Shown here piece after piece: positions 25,987 to 50,554 of a stretch of 64,000 nucleotides of DNA. The notes under the pieces were generated by a model that was not told the origin of the DNA, searched no databases, and was given only the letters and a program-made list of their open reading frames with translations. Every line of letters begins with the position of its first letter. Position 1 is the first letter of the stretch. Origin of the DNA: Candidatus Iainarchaeum sp. (GTDB taxonomy: Archaea > Iainarchaeota > Iainarchaeia > Iainarchaeales > VGJJ01). Both the position numbers and the translations under genes were made by a program. The stretch covers positions 64,001 through 128,000 of the forward strand of contig JAZDJQ010000018.1 in assembly GCA_043803765.1 (NCBI GenBank), in the 5' to 3' direction.

Positions 25987-26084
25987 AAAACCGAAAAGAA
26001 ACTTGCTCCATAAAAGGATGACCCTAAAAAAAACATATTCCGGAAGTCCAACCAAAAAAAGAACCCCTGATAGCAAAAACAAAA

Positions 26085-26156
26085 TAGGCCCGGGCAGAGT
26101 CGAACTGCCGTCTCGACCGTGTGAAGGTCGTGTGATAACCGTTACACTACGGGCCT
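26085..26156 (-). tRNA. tRNA-Val(CAC)
   Basis: AGGCCCG/CGGGCCT-A; anticodon arm CGACC-TTCACAC-GGTCG; T arm GGCAG-TTCGACT-CTGCC. Confidence 0.95.
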
Positions 26157-26263
26157 TTCCTCTCAAAGAAAGGAGCAAAAAAGGCTTATAAAACACGGGT
26201 AGGAAACCCATCCCTTTTGAGAAGAGGGCGAACTTATAAATCAAAAAGGAGTGTTTCACTCGC

Positions 26264-27247
26264 ATGACACGGCATACTTTTTGGATACTCGGATTTCTTC
26301 TATTACTTACTCCAGTGTTAGCCCTTGAATTGGACGCCCCTGAACAAGTCCCATCGTATTCCCCCTTCACGTTCAGAGTGATTCTCCCCTCAACCGAGGC
26401 ATTTTCTACCGCCACGATTATGTTCGACAATATCGGGGTTGCCACGATTTACAACTCAGGAACGTGTCTCATTCAACCTGACTGGATTCCTTTTTTGATT
26501 CACTGCAAAACGTACGATACCGACCCAAAAACAAACGAAGGATTAACTGCCATCATTACGCACACGGGATTTGCTAAAGGAATTCATACCATTTCAATTC
26601 AATCACAAGGAATAGAAGGAAGCTTTTCCAGCACCGAAGTGAAAGTGATTACCCCGCTCGAAGACACGTATAAGGATGAGTTAAATAGTGAGATAACAAA
26701 CGTAAAAGGACGCGTGGAAGAGTTAGAAACATTTTCGCAAGGAGCCCAGCAAAAAATAAATGAAACACAATCCCAACTCGAACAAACGATTCATGAAACA
26801 GGAGAAAAAATCAACACGCTCAAAGACTTGTTAAGTGCCCAATTCAAAAATGCAGAAAAAGTAGTCCAACAATCAAGTGAAACGTTTACCATTCCCTTCT
26901 TATCAGGCAATGGCACGGGGCTTGCAACAGGAGTGAACGCACCCGTATTAGGCATTCTCCTGATTGTAGCATTTGCATCATTAATCCTATTTGCAGGAAT
27001 AGGAAGGAAAAAGAAAACAGGTTTTGGAGGAATCATCCCAAAAGACAATACTCCATTCCTCGCAGGAAATTTAGACACACTATTCAAAGGACTACCCGAA
27101 AAAAAGAATATGGAAGAACGAATTTCTCCCCAACCCAAAAAATGGTCGTCGGATGTAGAAGAGGAATTGCGTGATGATATTGAAAACAATCCGCCTGAAA
27201 AAAGCAAAGTGAACTTTGGTGACCTTATTCGGAATGAAAGGGATTGA
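26264..27247 (+). CDS. Secreted Ig-like plus coiled-coil protein with TM anchor
   Basis: Signal peptide (VLA-L), coiled coil, TM and charged cytoplasmic tail. Confidence 0.75.
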   Translation: MTRHTFWILGFLLLLTPVLALELDAPEQVPSYSPFTFRVILPSTEAFSTATIMFDNIGVATIYNSGTCLIQPDWIPFLIHCKTYDTDPKTNEGLTAIITHTGFAKGIHTISIQSQGIEGSFSSTEVKVITPLEDTYKDELNSEITNVKGRVEELETFSQGAQQKINETQSQLEQTIHETGEKINTLKDLLSAQFKNAEKVVQQSSETFTIPFLSGNGTGLATGVNAPVLGILLIVAFASLILFAGIGRKKKTGFGGIIPKDNTPFLAGNLDTLFKGLPEKKNMEERISPQPKKWSSDVEEELRDDIENNPPEKSKVNFGDLIRNERD

Positions 27248-27309
27248 ATTGGTTTTCGCATCCATCTCCTGCTCCTTTAAATGTATTTCAACACCAAGTT
27301 CCTGTATCT

Positions 27310-27393
27310 GCAGGAGTAGCGAAGCGGTCAAACGTGTTGGCCTTAGAAGCCAATGGCTTAGTGCCTTCGGAGGTTCGAATCCTCCCTCCTGCA
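27310..27393 (+). tRNA. tRNA-Leu(UAG)
   Basis: GCAGGAG/CTCCTGC-A; TTGGC-CTTAGAA-GCCAA; long variable arm. Confidence 0.95.
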
Positions 27394-27425
27394 TTAAATT
27401 CGTATCAAAAAAAATGGAAAAAAAA

Positions 27426-27701
27426 GGCTCCGTGGTATAGCTGGATAATTTCAACGGTCGCCACGACGAGCTATTGGGTAGGGTTTTCAATCCTATTGTA
27501 GACCAATCTGCTGCATGCCCGCGTGGTGCAGTCGGCCGATTTCGCACGGCCACCACGAGGGACTACATGGTTGGATTTTCAATCCAACAGTAGGTCAATC
27601 ATTGTACACTGCCTGTGTGGTGTAGTCCGCCGTTTTCGTCCGGCGGCACCGACGGACTAACGCAGGATTTAACAATCCTGCAATAGGCCAAATAAAATAC
27701 G
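27426..27701 (+). repeat. Tandem array of three ~92-bp units, each a tRNA 5'-end copy plus a structured module
   Basis: Units start at 27426, 27517 and 27611 with GGCTCCGTGGTATAGCT / GCCCGCGTGGTGCAGTC / GCCTGTGTGGTGTAGTC, versus tRNA-Arg GCCCGTGTGGTGTAGTC at 27702; shared covarying hairpins. Confidence 0.85.
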
Positions 27702-27775
27702 GCCCGTGTGGTGTAGTCTGGATAGCATAAGGGCTTCCGGAGCCCTTGACCTGGGTTCAAATCCCAGCACGGGTG
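27702..27775 (+). tRNA. tRNA-Arg(CCG)
   Basis: GCCCGTG/CACGGGT-G; AGGGC-TTCCGGA-GCCCT; CTGGG-TTCAAAT-CCCAG. Confidence 0.95.
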
Positions 27776-27856
27776 TCTAGGGGTTGTTTTACAATCCCTT
27801 TACCGTTTTCCCCGGGCTTTTCTGAAAAGGCCGGTTCCGAATTCCAGCACGGGTGT
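27776..27856 (+). mobile_element. tRNA-anchored mini-element with duplicated tRNA-Arg 3' end
   Basis: CCAGCACGGGTGT at 27764 is repeated at 27844, preceded by TTTTCCCCGGGCTTTTCTGAAAAGGCCGGTTCCGAAT. Confidence 0.7.
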
Positions 27857-28269
27857 TATCTTTCTTTCAGAGGAAAGAACGAATACTAGAAACTGGATTG
27901 AGTGATACAATCCAATTTCCAATTAGAAAAAAGAGTTTTCCTCCACTCTTGAGAAGGAAAATTATTCCGATGAGGAATTGAATAAAACATATTATACTTA
28001 GCGCAAGCAACACTCCCGTTATGCGATGACGGGAAAGAAAAGGCCATTTTTCTTCAAGTGAAGCACGAACAAGACCAATGTATACGCTAAGACTGACACG
28101 AAAACAATAGATTTTTTCTTCCACATGAGCGGAAGCTGAATGAAAGAATGCTAGGAACGACATGATGAAACACCTATTTGGAGAGTATTACGCCAAAAAC
28201 TAATTTTTGGACGCACCAGCATGAAAAAAGAAACCCTTTATATGGGTTGATTTGCGAGACTATAACATA

Positions 28270-28863
28270 ATGAAACGAATTTCGTTAGAAAACATTCCCT
28301 TTTCATCCCCGCAAAAAGGATATGCTCCGAGGGAAGACTCATGGCTGCTTGCCCACCACCTCCCCAATGCGAAAGGAAAAAAATGCCTCGATATGGGTTG
28401 CGGAAGCGGAATACAGACAGCCGCACTGTTGGTGAATGAAGCAGAAGAAGTATGGTGCGTTGACATCAATCAGGATGCATTAGAAAAAACAAAAAAAATA
28501 GTCGAGAAGTATTTTCCAGGAAAAAAAACACATTATGTCCAATCCAATTTATTTGAAACGATTCTAAATGAAAAATTTGATATTATTGTATTTAATCCAC
28601 CCTATGTTCCAAGCGAAAAAATAAAATGGATGGAAGTAGACGGAGGAAAAAAAGGAAGGGAAATCATTGACGCATTCATTGAAAAAATTCCTTATCATCT
28701 AAATGAAAAAGGAGAATGCTATCTTCTTCAATCATCCCTCAATGGAATACCTATTACCGAAAAAAAAATACGAAAGCATGGAATGAACGGAGTAATTATT
28801 GCACGGCAGAAAATAGCTTTTGAAGAATTGATTATCTTTCGCATCAGTAAAAACAACCTTTAA
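28270..28863 (+). CDS. HemK2/Mtq2-like N5-glutamine methyltransferase
   Basis: YAPREDS, LDMGCGSG, FNPPY, DGG..GR. Confidence 0.9.
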   Translation: MKRISLENIPFSSPQKGYAPREDSWLLAHHLPNAKGKKCLDMGCGSGIQTAALLVNEAEEVWCVDINQDALEKTKKIVEKYFPGKKTHYVQSNLFETILNEKFDIIVFNPPYVPSEKIKWMEVDGGKKGREIIDAFIEKIPYHLNEKGECYLLQSSLNGIPITEKKIRKHGMNGVIIARQKIAFEELIIFRISKNNL

Positions 28864-28890
28864 ATGTACTTTCACCTGCAAATGCATGAC

Positions 28891-28974
28891 GCATGCGTAC
28901 CCAAGCGGTCTAAGGGGCCAGACTCAGACTCTGGTGGCTTAGTGCCTTCGGAGGTTCGAATCCTCCCGCGTGCA
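28891..28974 (+). tRNA. tRNA-Leu(CAG)
   Basis: GCATGCG/CGCGTGC-A; CCAGA-CTCAGAC-TCTGG; variable arm identical to tRNA-Leu(UAG). Confidence 0.95.
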
Positions 28975-29083
28975 TGTCCAGTTCCGATTGGACCAACCGG
29001 CGTAGCGTGATGGCATGCCATCACTCATCCATTTTTCCCCGGGCTTTTCACAAAAGGCCGGTTCTGAATCCTCCCGCGTGCAT
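28975..29083 (+). mobile_element. tRNA-anchored mini-element with duplicated tRNA-Leu 3' end
   Basis: GAATCCTCCCGCGTGCAT at 28958 is repeated exactly at 29066; 37-nt terminal motif 34/37 identical to the Arg element. Confidence 0.75.
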
Positions 29084-29191
29084 CGCGGGTTTCGCCCGGT
29101 CGAAATGAAGTAGCATTATAACGAACCATAACTCGTTTTCGCTCCTTTTGGGCATTTCATTTAATTACCCCTTTTACTATTCCTTCTTTTA

Positions 29192-29251
29192 GGGAATGAT
29201 GACGTAAACCCCGACTGACGAAAGGATGATGAATTAACTCACGTCTGACCC
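29192..29251 (+). ncRNA. Box C/D methylation-guide sRNA
   Basis: GGG-A-ATGATGA-CGTAAACCCCGA-CTGA-CGAAAGG-ATGATGA-ATTAACTCACGT-CTGA-CCC: four consensus boxes and two 12-nt guides. Confidence 0.9.
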
Positions 29252-29300
29252 GCTTTCTATTTCCATGGGGGTTAAAAACAGGAAAATGGTTTTCTTACGC

Positions 29301-29999
29301 ATGGTTATTACTTTAACGTTAACCCAAGCCGAATCAAAGAAAGTAATAGAAAAATTAAGGGAATACCCTTCTTTACCTATTCCATCCGCGTATGAGAAGG
29401 CACGCCACCAAGTGGGAGATGCACGTGTAACCGTGTATGCGAGCGGAAAAGTGGTTATCCAAGCAAAAAACAACGAAGTGGAAGAAGCCATTCATGAACG
29501 AATAACGAAATGGTTAGGAAATGAATTAGACGAACTAGTGCTTGGAATGGATGAAACAGGAAGAGGAGAACGGCACGGCCCACTCGTGGTAAGCGGAGTG
29601 TTAGGACAGCGCAACCAACTGCGCGCCGTGAGGGACTCTAAAAAAACACACAACATCAAAGGAGCATATCATACTGCAACCCATAAAAGTAAAATGCAAG
29701 TAAGCGTCTCATTCAATGCTGAAACAATTGACGAACTAAGGAGAAAAGGAATCACGCTCAACGAGATGGAAAGCCATGCCATGCAAAAAATACATGAACT
29801 GATTAACGTTTTTTTCCCTGAATCGATCACGATTGCGGATGGAAAACCTCTTAAAAAAGGAATGAAGGGAATTATTTTTCAAGAAAAAGCAGATGACACC
29901 GAACCAAGTGTAGCAGCAGCAAGTATTGTTGCCAAACATACACGAAATGAGAGTGGAGACCAAAATGAACGGAAAACATGGAAGCGAATTGCGGATTAA
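29301..29999 (+). CDS. RNase HII/HIII-family nuclease with N-terminal TBP-like (DUF3378-type) domain
   Basis: VTVYASGKVVIQ N-domain; GMDETGRG, VRDSKK, KAD...VAAASIVAK. Confidence 0.8.
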   Translation: MVITLTLTQAESKKVIEKLREYPSLPIPSAYEKARHQVGDARVTVYASGKVVIQAKNNEVEEAIHERITKWLGNELDELVLGMDETGRGERHGPLVVSGVLGQRNQLRAVRDSKKTHNIKGAYHTATHKSKMQVSVSFNAETIDELRRKGITLNEMESHAMQKIHELINVFFPESITIADGKPLKKGMKGIIFQEKADDTEPSVAAASIVAKHTRNESGDQNERKTWKRIAD

Positions 30000-30531
30000 C
30001 CCGCATTCCAGAATAAAAATGATCAACGCGGCAAAGGCGCCGGATGTTCGATTATGGACAAATGAAAATTTGGCCGAGAAAAAAGAGATTCTTCCTCCAA
30101 AAAGACTAACCCGAGACGAGAGGATAAGATGGTATTCGCAAAGGGATATCAAAATAAGGAGCATTATCAGAAAAGAAAACGAACGAAAAATGAAGATGGA
30201 GGATGAATTCAGGAAAATGGCAAGAAAAGAAGGGCACCTCTCCGAGGAAGCGATCAACAAGATGGAGCCACTGGCCATTAAATTGTTCAGGGTGGAAATG
30301 AGACTGCATCGAATGGAAATATTAGCACTATTGCATCGGACCTATTGGGAAATCGAGGAAAGAAACCCGACACCAGAGGAGTCCAAGCGAATATGGAAAG
30401 AAACCCAAGACGTCATCGAATCCTACCGCAACGTAGAACGGGAAATGATTGAAATGATTAACCATTCCACTGAACGGAAAGGCGGGATAAGAGACATGAT
30501 TATACGATCATTAAGGAAAAAGCGGGATTAG
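29965..30531 (+). CDS. Hypothetical charged helical protein
   Basis: Long E/R/K-rich ORF; start codon uncertain. Confidence 0.55.
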   Translation: MNGKHGSELRINPHSRIKMINAAKAPDVRLWTNENLAEKKEILPPKRLTRDERIRWYSQRDIKIRSIIRKENERKMKMEDEFRKMARKEGHLSEEAINKMEPLAIKLFRVEMRLHRMEILALLHRTYWEIEERNPTPEESKRIWKETQDVIESYRNVEREMIEMINHSTERKGGIRDMIIRSLRKKRD

Positions 30532-50319: not shown

Positions 50320-50412
50320 ACGGGGCGGGAGAGATTCAGAACGCACCCCTTTTTCTTTAAAAGAAAAAGTCGCGCCCGGTCAAAAAGAACAACCCATTCA
50401 CAAAAAACAAAA
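50320..50412 (-). mobile_element. tRNA-anchored mini-element with duplicated tRNA-Pro 3' end
   Basis: ACGGGGCGGGAGAGATT at 50320 and 50412; minus strand reads ...CCGGGCGCGACTTTTTC...GAAAAAGGGGTGCG-TTCTG-AATCTCTCCCGCCCCG. Confidence 0.7.
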
Positions 50413-50485
50413 CGGGGCGGGAGAGATTTGAACTCTCGCCTGCACCTCCCGAAGGTGCAATCCTACCAGGCTAGACGACCGCCCC
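50413..50485 (-). tRNA. tRNA-Pro(CGG)
   Basis: GGGGCGG/CCGCCCC-G; GCACC-TTCGGGA-GGTGC; GAGAG-TTCAAAT-CTCTC. Confidence 0.93.
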
Positions 50486-50554
50486 AGTAAAAACAGTCGT
50501 ATCTCACACTGTGTGAAATACCCTTAAAAATGGGCTTTCCATTGGTTGGGCAGT

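Follow-up and report, generated by a model that had tools for sequence, protein, structure and literature searches.

What is the DNA that separates a tRNA gene from a second copy of its own 3' end? We asked this for a 64,000-nt stretch of Candidatus Iainarchaeum sp. (contig JAZDJQ010000018.1, positions 64,001 to 128,000; hereafter the window, to which all coordinates without a prefix refer), in which tRNA-Leu(CAG) is followed, after about 90 bp, by an exact copy of its last part. Window positions 28976-29065 are a full-length copy of a family of small, non-coding, non-autonomous mobile elements of an archaeal genus. Two points we regard as secure: this DNA is inserted, mobile and non-coding, and the distal tRNA end arises as a by-product. 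For the way in which the element arrives, we favour, with a probability of roughly 40 to 45%, a one-ended copy-in that would be anchored by homology and take a single-stranded donor copy as template, with priming in the T-loop region.

The Leu(CAG) element and its fixed right end

The target gene, tRNA-Leu(CAG), occupies 28891-28974 on the plus strand according to ARAGORN and Rfam alike (Rfam tRNA model, 56.2 bits), and the two programs also agreed on tRNA-Arg(CCG) at 27702-27775. A repeat search returned an exact 18-nt direct repeat around the element, 28958-28975 and 29066-29083, 100% identical and with a spacing of 108. Its proximal copy comprises tRNA positions 57-73 plus one base (GAATCCTCCCGCGTGCAT), and its distal copy is the displaced or duplicated tRNA end. 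Directly 3' of the distal copy, TCGCGGGTTTCGCCCGG is probably the hairpin of the old trailer, judging from a comparison with relatives. The DNA in between holds no open reading frame and consists of a series of small palindromes, all described here on the plus strand. Hairpin 1 (28976-28993; GTCCAGT-TCCG-ATTGGAC, with one G-T pair) was present in both the minimum-free-energy and the centroid folds and is followed by the tail CAACCGG. The linker CAACCGGCGTAGC (28994-29006) leads to hairpin 2 (29007-29024), a perfect 9+9 palindrome whose arms, GTGATGGCA and TGCCATCAC, are 100% complementary, as found by inverted-repeat search and in the folds. After the T-run TTTTT (29032-29036) comes the constant end, the terminal hairpin h3 (29037-29061; CCCCGGGCTTTTC-AC-AAAAGGCCGG, with one G-G mismatch), recovered both as a pattern match and in the folds. 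The final tail, TTCT (29062-29065), together with the GG before it and the G after it, reads GGTTCTG, a T-loop-like motif with one extra base. The pair AACCGGC...GCCGGTT falls inside a 16-nt inverted pair (28995-29010 and 29048-29063, 75% complementary), and every interior palindrome that an earlier, sequence-only reading of the locus had named was found here.

The Leu element has no terminal inverted repeats; its hairpins are all internal and its two ends do not pair. The fold energies of the elements were unexceptional, with z = -1.17 for Leu and -0.91 for Arg. When 26000-30500 was searched against Rfam with E values up to 1, only four tRNAs scored above the gathering threshold and the element matched no family; below threshold, C/D-box models matched at 29192-29251 and two others, at chance level, within tRNA-Arg. 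No bulge-helix-bulge motif (3-4-3) was seen at the element borders, by eye only.

The constant end occurs twice in close proximity. A 37-mer pattern covering it had two matches in the window, at 27806-27842 and 29033-29069, where none was expected and where none of 100 dinucleotide-preserving shuffles gave any. The sequence-only reading had put the two copies at 34/37 identical, each running into the 3' end of its own tRNA. We confirmed both points: the copies differ at three degenerate positions only, and the tRNA end that follows is exact over 18 nt for Leu and 94% identical over 17 nt for Arg (27760-27776 and 27840-27856, spacing 80). The sister element behind tRNA-Arg(CCG), delimited by repeat search, folds and pattern at 27760-27856 on the plus strand, consists of a T-arm-like hairpin (27779-27799), a T-run (27806-27809), an h3 (27810-27834) that is the same as that of the Leu element, and the tail TTCCG (27835-27839). 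It belongs to a middle-sized class, and it is the extra hairpin that resembles a T-arm. A third member lies on the minus strand at 50320-50428 (converted from C18:114320-114428; contigs of the host genome are given as C with a number), behind tRNA-Pro(CGG) at 50412-50486, also minus. It carries a hairpin of a second subfamily (TTTTGACCGGGCG...) and has a repeat period of 92.

To describe the family, we pooled 158 unique tRNA contexts, comprising the host genome and archaeal loci from its relatives; the sample is biased in that some loci were chosen because they carry the hairpin. A copy of the tRNA 3' end was found in 26/158 contexts; neither a reversed query nor a search on the wrong side gave any. 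In 26/26 of these copies a hairpin lies directly 5' of the distal repeat, the outer stem being G+C and the inner one T/A, with usually one mismatch; at least four T stand just upstream of it in 24/26, as read by eye. The hairpins fall into two main subfamilies, the first being CCCCGGGS...GGCCGG with variants in which pairing is kept through changed stems, and the second a longer TTTTGACYGGGCG... type at Ala GGC, Pro CGG and Arg GCG. The full order is one base, hairpin 1, linker, hairpin 2, T-run, h3 and short tail, and the left part is absent from many copies. Accordingly, the repeat periods form three classes: minimal copies of 56-61 with T-run and h3, copies of 69-86 with one extra hairpin, and copies of 92-130 with three hairpins. 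The orientation is always the same, with the T-run side toward the intact gene and the h3 side toward the partial copy. The earlier idea of a constant end with a variable interior therefore extends to the other copies, but "cargo" is not the right word, since the interior consists of hairpin modules of the same family or, in minimal copies, of nothing.

The joints of the element with its target are equally regular on the right side. The repeat begins at T-loop A58 or A59 in nearly all 26 cases, and GGTTCYG or a variant stands immediately 5' of it. In the 7/7 tRNAs of the host genome with the T-loop TTCAAAT, the copy has a G where the tRNA has A57, and an extra pyrimidine is usual, which means that GGTTCYG travels with the element and is not copied from the target. 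Repeat lengths under an extension rule (n = 26) were 17 nt in eight cases, 16 in six, 15 in three, 18 and 13 in two each, and 19 and 14 in one each; in three further cases the rule halted at mismatches and gave 6, 5 and 0. Altogether 20/26 repeats measure 15-19 nt. Longer ones exist, namely 28-30 nt at tRNA-Leu(GAG) of G012 (relatives are given as G with a number), about 21 nt at a 16S rRNA end, and one of 55 nt. The two strands are not equivalent. In 23/26 copies the better fold is that of the sense and not the antisense strand, and G-U pairs number 32 versus 10 (Wilcoxon p = 0.0003, which is not a true probability because the copies are related).

Distribution, empty sites and arrays

The genome that holds the window (G000; 1.02 Mb, 19 contigs, 93% complete) carries these elements at a sizeable share of its tRNA genes. 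Counting a copy of the last 14 nt of a tRNA with at most 2 mismatches within 400 nt downstream, we found a 3' copy at 11/46 ARAGORN tRNAs: Lys CTT, Lys TTT, Gln CTG, Val TAC, Ala GGC, Arg TCT, Arg GCG, Leu CAA, Arg CCG, Leu CAG and Pro CGG. A copy of the first 14 nt upstream was present at 5/46 (Arg TCT, Ser TGA, Arg TCG, Ser GCT and Arg CCG); the pooled sample had such a 5' copy in 8/158 contexts, with controls at 1 and 0. In relatives with near-complete tRNA sets, a 3' copy was found at 5/43 tRNAs (G012) and 3/41 (G017).

The hairpin with at most 3 mismatches was present in 10/18 genomes of the taxonomic family, with a control of 0. We then defined a strict signature as hairpin arm plus tail, AAAGRYYGGTTCYGWAT, and scanned 215 genomes of the phylum together with a reversed control. 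This gave 22 distinct matches in 8/215 genomes (7/17 of the same genus and 1 of another family), and the reversed control gave 0. The sequence-only reading had proposed that what follows the constant end should be a tRNA 3' fragment, and for most matches this was indeed so: 16/22 had a strict repeat (the 12-mer after the match, with at most 1 mismatch, also occurring within 330 nt upstream), and in 14 of those 16 the upstream copy was the 3' end of an ARAGORN tRNA. The remaining 6/22 were followed by tRNA-3'-like strings, by our own reading, some of them decayed. One correction is needed. The hairpin alone, lacking the tail, is not always tied to a repeat: at 14 such places in relatives the repeat was clear in 5, decayed in 1, ambiguous in 1 and absent within the locus in 7.

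We also searched for h3 in wider collections. The exact h3 was found in 20 stretches of genome contigs, of which 7 were in records titled uncultured archaeon or archaeon; the others were bacterial and had no T-run context. A metagenome scan gave 36 stretches, many of them gut-bacterial look-alikes, and only a handful were family members by reading (L173, L180, L181, L193, L195 and L196; L numbers denote loci). Two matches to the junction pattern in viral contigs had no hairpin and were set aside as chance. A loose scan for CAACCGA plus hairpin was abandoned, its 384 matches being mostly meaningless.

With regard to mobility, relatives have both empty and filled sites. At tRNA-Leu(CAG), G017 is empty and G012 has 58 additional bases, including a 15-nt repeat, within the same flank. 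At tRNA-Leu(GAG), again within the same flank, G017 is empty and G012 is filled, and the 28-30-nt repeat there reaches about 12 nt past the tRNA end. At tRNA-Arg(CCT) the repeat is found in G017 only, G012 having a hairpin with no copy and a different flank. The region around the Leu element itself can be compared with G008, in which the order is tRNA-Leu(TAG), 14 nt, tRNA-Arg(CCG), a methyltransferase gene and tRNA-Leu(CAG); none of the three tRNAs is followed by a repeat copy or a hairpin element. Relative to this arrangement, the window has about 300 nt of extra units in the first spacer and elements behind both later tRNAs.

The elements also accumulate in tandem. Behind tRNA-Ser(TGA) of G005 there are three cassettes that all start from A58 and agree fully in h3 and in the tail TTCTG; hairpins 1 and 2 are particular to each. 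Divergence is greatest in the outermost repeat, here as in L012, which supports the view that the distal copy is a by-product. Hairpins 1 and 2 of the second cassette also form the trailer of tRNA-Leu(CAG) in the same genome. In the host genome, the partners within each of the two most similar pairs of h3 are 1.2-1.3 kb apart (Arg CCG/Leu CAG and Lys CTT/Lys TTT), a sign of local spread. Targets other than tRNA 3' ends are used as well. Inverted copies occur at tRNA-Ser 5' ends of the host genome and in L013. In L015, the only protein-gene target examined, an element with a 16-nt repeat sits at the start of the gene, and the target GGCCGACTTCA|AAACC resembles the element junction GGCCGGTTCTG|AATCC. 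An element behind an archaeal 16S rRNA gene on a metagenome contig (L180) has a repeat of about 21 nt from GATCACCTCC and shares with the Leu element both h3 and the GCGTAGCGTGA of the linker.

A related observation concerns tRNA-Gln(CTG) of the host genome (C2:10421-10560). The distal copy behind it retains the 3' end of the G005 orthologue and is nearly identical to the 3' end of tRNA-Gln(TTG), whereas the working gene has acquired two compensated stem changes, at pairs 5-68 and 49-65. Because the working gene changed and the distal copy did not, the copy is a fossil of an older tRNA sequence.

How the element may reach a gene end

The reading that we favour starts from the two joints. Insertion takes place near the end of an RNA gene: the constant right end joins within the T-loop-like motif, between tRNA positions 57 and 58, and the variable left end at the gene end or a few bases beyond. 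The stretch between the joints (58-73, sometimes more) thus comes to lie on both sides, so that the tRNA stays whole and a useless second end is left downstream to decay. In the proposed one-ended copy-in, a DNA 3' end in the T-loop region would pair with the element junction GGTTCYG|AATCC on a single-stranded sense-strand donor copy; it would then be extended leftwards for a variable distance and rejoined just past the gene end, for instance in the T-rich trailer. The enzymes would be those of host replication or repair rather than a transposase encoded by the element. The data themselves show how the element is built, that it belongs to a family, that its presence varies between genomes, that its right joint is fixed and its left joint variable, that the strands are asymmetric and that the tested enzymes are lacking; the single-stranded intermediate, the priming step and the enzymes are what we infer here. 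Copy-in fits best because the right joint is fixed and T-loop-like, the junction resembles its target on both sides (at tRNAs and in L015) and the left ends are variable, and also because repeat lengths pile up at the minimum that saves the gene yet reach 21-30 nt, and no dedicated enzyme was found.

The search for such an enzyme gave the following results. No reverse transcriptase (RVT_1, PF00078) was detected in 18 genomes of the taxonomic family, while the control was positive in 3/14. TnpB, the IS110 transposase and GIY-YIG each gave 0 in the host genome, 93% complete as it is, and with the lack of a GIY-YIG domain the lead that had pointed to one was dropped. Cas1 (PF01867) was absent from the host genome and present in 1/18 genomes, with the control positive in 7/14. 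The Y1 transposase (Y1_Tnp, PF01797) occurs in 4/18 genomes and is absent from the element carriers G012, G017, G002 and G005; G012 and G017, which both lack it, differ from each other by insertions. For Y2_Tnp (IS91-type) there was no match, but the control was silent too, so this result is uninformative. The host genome has three tyrosine recombinases, at C1:34509-34997, C17:14070-14615 and C14:32491-32988, none linked to elements and one of them short and XerA-like in our judgement. An IS200 lead was rejected, since the lone Y1 gene of the host genome (C4:232-591) is associated with different hairpins and is missing from most relatives; this IS200-like gene adjoins tRNA-Arg(CCT) and is flanked by small hairpins with CTAAAG loops (C4:202-693).

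Several points weigh against copy-in. The repeats are mostly 15-19 nt, which would also fit a fixed staggered cut by some other enzyme. Left joints of full-length copies fall exactly after position 73 or 74 (the Leu element here, and cassettes 2 and 3 of G005), and such exactness is poorly explained by a purely homology-driven return. Tail and target flank are little alike where the insertions are inverted, at tRNA-Ser 5' ends and in L013. Loci (about 0.5-1 kb) of 30%, 57% and 66% G+C carry almost the same h3, suggesting horizontal spread and an active mobilising function. Furthermore, the enzyme search covered nine protein families, and another or a phage-borne enzyme could be responsible; the genomes are metagenome assemblies of 71-96% completeness.

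The strongest rival, which we nevertheless consider unlikely, is a Campbell-type integration in which a tiny circular cassette, [58-73][hairpins][h3][GGTTCYG], would itself supply the replacement tRNA end. Recombination would take place in the T-loop, through a tyrosine recombinase, an integron-like single-strand recombinase acting on h3, or homologous recombination over 16 nt, and new cassettes would enter beside the tRNA body while older ones are pushed outward. The three cassettes of G005, running from A58 to GGTTCTG with a degenerate outermost repeat, look like this, and the cassette model accounts for arrays as well as copy-in does. The joint itself resembles a core site, with partial likeness on its left (GGTTC) and identity on its right, and repeats of variable length would be natural if a variable old flank were carried along. 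A hairpin mismatch and a strand bias are known from integron attC sites; in h3 the mismatch is conserved and the bias favours the sense strand. The activity could come from the host genome's three tyrosine recombinases. The layout as a whole is that of the traces left by tRNA-targeting integrases. Those integrases regenerate the gene and leave a displaced fragment in the case of Islander elements (PMC4383910), and the attP core of Ms6 lies in the T-loop of tRNA-Ala (PMC1762012).

One argument against the cassette is its tie to one tRNA. Nearly identical h3 are found at Arg and Leu in the window and at Ser, Leu(CAA) and Leu(TAG) in G005, and the model leaves unexplained how a cassette gains a new 16-nt gene end, or how many tRNAs can share one end. 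Circles of double-stranded DNA of only 60-110 bp are, besides, too stiff for the usual site-specific recombination. No larger relative with an h3 junction was found in the host genome, where all hairpin-preceded GTTCYGAAT sites lie within about 210 nt of a tRNA and no distant h3 junction was detected, nor was one found in viral contigs. Moreover, the host genome does have classical integrase arrays, at tRNA-Tyr, Met, Phe and His, and these look different and have no h3. The Tyr and Phe copies far exceed the 13-nt query (about 25-31 nt): five more copies of the tRNA-Tyr 3' end are spread over 10 kb downstream of that gene (C12:125764-135874), and tRNA-Phe is followed, 0.8 kb downstream, by a 31-nt copy of its end (C1:55758-56601). 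They are stacked elements of the classical integrase type, distinct from the mini-elements.

Less probable still is a two-ended derivative of a DNA transposon, of the kind called MITE (miniature inverted-repeat transposable element). Staggered transposase cuts of about 16-18 bp at T-loop-like targets, followed by gap repair, would produce a true target-site duplication. The tight cluster of repeat lengths (17 in eight, 16 in six, 15 in three and 18 in two of 26) is what one would expect, and any new target would be covered, be it a tRNA 3' end, an inverted tRNA 5' end, a protein gene start or the 16S end. Casposases follow such target rules, with a 15-bp duplication by the T-loop segment of tRNA-Pro (PMC5137440). 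However, the elements have no terminal inverted repeats, their left ends are not conserved and the three size classes have only the right end in common. The outlier repeats of 21, 28-30 and 55 nt do not fit, no candidate transposase co-occurs with the elements, and the likeness of the tail to the left flank of the target is not needed by simple cut-and-paste.

We consider it quite improbable that the hairpins are a non-mobile functional trailer or terminator module, with the repeat arising by local tandem duplication or slippage at a hairpin. A T-run and a hairpin do stand where an archaeal tRNA transcript is expected to end, the sense strand folds better than the antisense strand and pairing is kept through changed stems. 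Hairpin-1 modules also occur behind the signal recognition particle (SRP) RNA and protein genes, h3 forms tandem arrays with 12-13-nt spacers, and L173 is a plain 85-nt tandem duplication. Nevertheless, orthologous tRNAs of close relatives work without the module, making a purely functional trailer unlikely. The Leu element's interior bears no relation to the old trailer beyond the distal copy, which argues that DNA was inserted and not duplicated locally. The distal copies decay and the fold z-scores are weak. Only 22 such hairpins by a strict structural definition exist in the host genome, with an estimated 1,100 or so genes, so that a general terminator is not what they are.

Deletion remnants of large integrated viruses or plasmids, that is, attL/attR scars with the interior lost, can practically be dismissed even though stacked integrase-type elements with repeated tRNA-end cores exist at tRNA-Met and tRNA-Tyr of the host genome, because 26/26 cases are below 220 bp with a common ordered hairpin architecture, the host genome yielded no full-length element bounded by h3, and independent deletions would not yield the same 35-nt end each time.

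Relation to known systems and neighbouring units

The family works partly like several known kinds of mobile DNA and fails a defining feature of each. With tRNA-targeting integrative elements (tyrosine integrases, T-loop sublocation) and their integrase-less derivatives, the cis-mobilizable elements (CIMEs), it shares a tRNA 3' part split at the T-loop, a regenerated gene, a displaced fragment at the far end and tandem accretion; a tRNA 3' segment forms the direct repeat at both ends. By contrast, the elements here measure 40-115 bp, have no gene and have an identity block of only 15-19 nt, and the same end is found at many unrelated tRNAs, at tRNA 5' ends, at the 16S end and at a protein gene start. 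This group has a cognate integrase or a related autonomous element with the same att site, of which we found none, and one lineage per tRNA target, whereas here the same h3 and tail occur at several tRNAs.

[quoted passage not shown] A duplication of about 15 bp beside a tRNA T-loop segment is described for casposons (PMC5137440), and the tRNA-Ser array of G005 can be read as leader (the tRNA body), repeat (58-73) and spacer (the element), with a degenerate outermost repeat. However, Cas1 is absent from the host genome and from 17/18 genomes of the taxonomic family, and terminal inverted repeats are lacking here. The duplicated stretch of our elements starts in the T-loop (58-73) and varies in length, while in A. 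boonei the overlap with the tRNA end is only 5 bp.

In short interspersed nuclear elements (SINEs) and retroposons without long terminal repeats (non-LTR), which insert by target-primed reverse transcription, the 3' end is constant, the 5' part is often lost, the duplication is fixed on one side and RNA genes are among the targets. The family described here likewise has a constant 3' end, 5' truncation, a duplication fixed on the side of the element's 3' end and variable on the other, and repeated insertion at RNA genes. Unlike them, it has no A-tail and no reverse transcriptase in 18 genomes of the taxonomic family, and the internal T-run would probably hinder an archaeal transcript across the element.

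Repetitive extragenic palindromes (REPs), bacterial interspersed mosaic elements (BIMEs), MITEs, GC clusters and double-hairpin elements resemble the family in being small, non-coding, intergenic hairpin repeats that form arrays, differ between strains and have no known enzyme. For the GC clusters of yeast mitochondria, a hairpin constraint and the merging or shuffling of modules have been described (PMC4478555; PMC3184786). These groups have flanking repeats of 2-3 nt or none, do not target gene ends and regenerate no gene over 16-18 nt. An intergenic imperfect hairpin repeat in arrays is common to REP/BIME and our elements, but the Y1 partner of the REP-associated tyrosine transposase (RAYT) type and the absence of a gene-end duplication are not. 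MITEs would in addition have terminal inverted repeats, absent here, and a target-site duplication of fixed length, which here is mostly 15-19 nt but also 21, 28-30 and 55.

About 17-18 nt separate the left hairpin from the left joint in IS608, and the same holds for the element here. Asymmetric ends, subterminal imperfect hairpins with no inverted repeats, strand bias and insertion beside a short motif are further features shared with IS200/IS605 and palindrome-associated transposable elements (PATEs). Those elements insert with no duplication, whereas here there is one, and PATEs have a Y1 HUH transposase in genomes with active copies, whereas here it is present in 4/18 genomes and absent from those with polymorphic insertions.

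We found no description of hairpin mini-elements with tRNA-end duplication in archaea in the open-access full-text literature. It is possible, and we propose it tentatively, that they represent an undescribed class of mobile DNA for very small genomes: geneless hairpin elements in T-loop- and D-loop-coding parts or beside gene starts, always regenerating the gene end, forming leader-proximal, proto-CRISPR-like arrays free of Cas1, integrase and reverse transcriptase, and using host replication and repair with the conserved T-loop as portable homology. If so, essential single-copy genes would become safe landing sites because the gene end is regenerated each time. In any case, an otherwise lethal insertion is present at about a quarter of the tRNA genes of a 1-Mb genome (11/46) and is made harmless by the rebuilding of the gene end, which shows how selfish DNA persists where there is almost no spare room. 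Arrays that grow beside a tRNA "leader", with a short repeat per step and no Cas1, bear on the origins of CRISPR-type integration. Should a host enzyme that acts on T-loop DNA provide the mobilising activity, this would be a new kind of site-directed insertion. For annotation, a short repeat of a tRNA end in a DPANN genome is not necessarily the sign of a genomic island.

A different unit occupies the spacer between tRNA-Leu(TAG) and tRNA-Arg(CCG), at 27426-27701, where G008 has 14 nt. Three units stand there in tandem. Units 2 and 3 open with a 17-nt copy of the tRNA-Arg 5' end (27517-27533 and 27611-27627), and unit 1 with a weaker tRNA-5'-like string. Each then has a UUCG-type hairpin and a stretch antisense to the copy (GGACTA versus TAGTCC), and after these a T-arm-like hairpin (GGRTT...AAYCC, with compensatory changes) and ATAGGYC. 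Units of this type also lie 5' of tRNA-Arg TCT and TCG in the host genome and of tRNA-Ile(TAT) in relatives. They look like a second class of element, inserting at D-loop position 17, or like a tRNA-like leader RNA. The idea of tRNA splitting or an intron was rejected, as the three units have no anticodon-bearing halves and no bulge-helix-bulge was seen, by eye.

Some of the hairpins also occur outside the tRNA context. Tandem arrays of two to six h3-type hairpins are present in the host genome at C18:54740-55015, C6:12340-12500 and C11:56210-56290, with a period of about 46 nt and spacers of 12-13 nt that are alike and have a consensus near TTGCGANAGCAA. In the relatives' loci L003, L008 and L010, h3 lies amid many GGGTTGG repeats in a region that ends near GGAGTTAAGGAGGTTAAC, with no tRNA-end copy. 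The sequence of hairpin 1 plus tail (GTCCAGTTYCGATTGGAC CAACCGR) keeps 93-96% identity between species in which adjacent genes share only about 70%, and it sits directly behind SRP RNA, the stop codons of protein genes and tRNAs (L037, L040 and L042-L044) as well as inside the 5' units of tRNA-Ile in relatives; in the host genome a strict scan gave one match only. This conservation suggests a protein-binding or RNA-processing signal. Finally, the C/D-box matches at 29192-29251 mark a candidate small RNA below the Rfam threshold (sR11, 25 bits against a cut-off of 39), which is 98% identical in G012, G017 and G006, where it lies 3' of the same tRNA-Leu.

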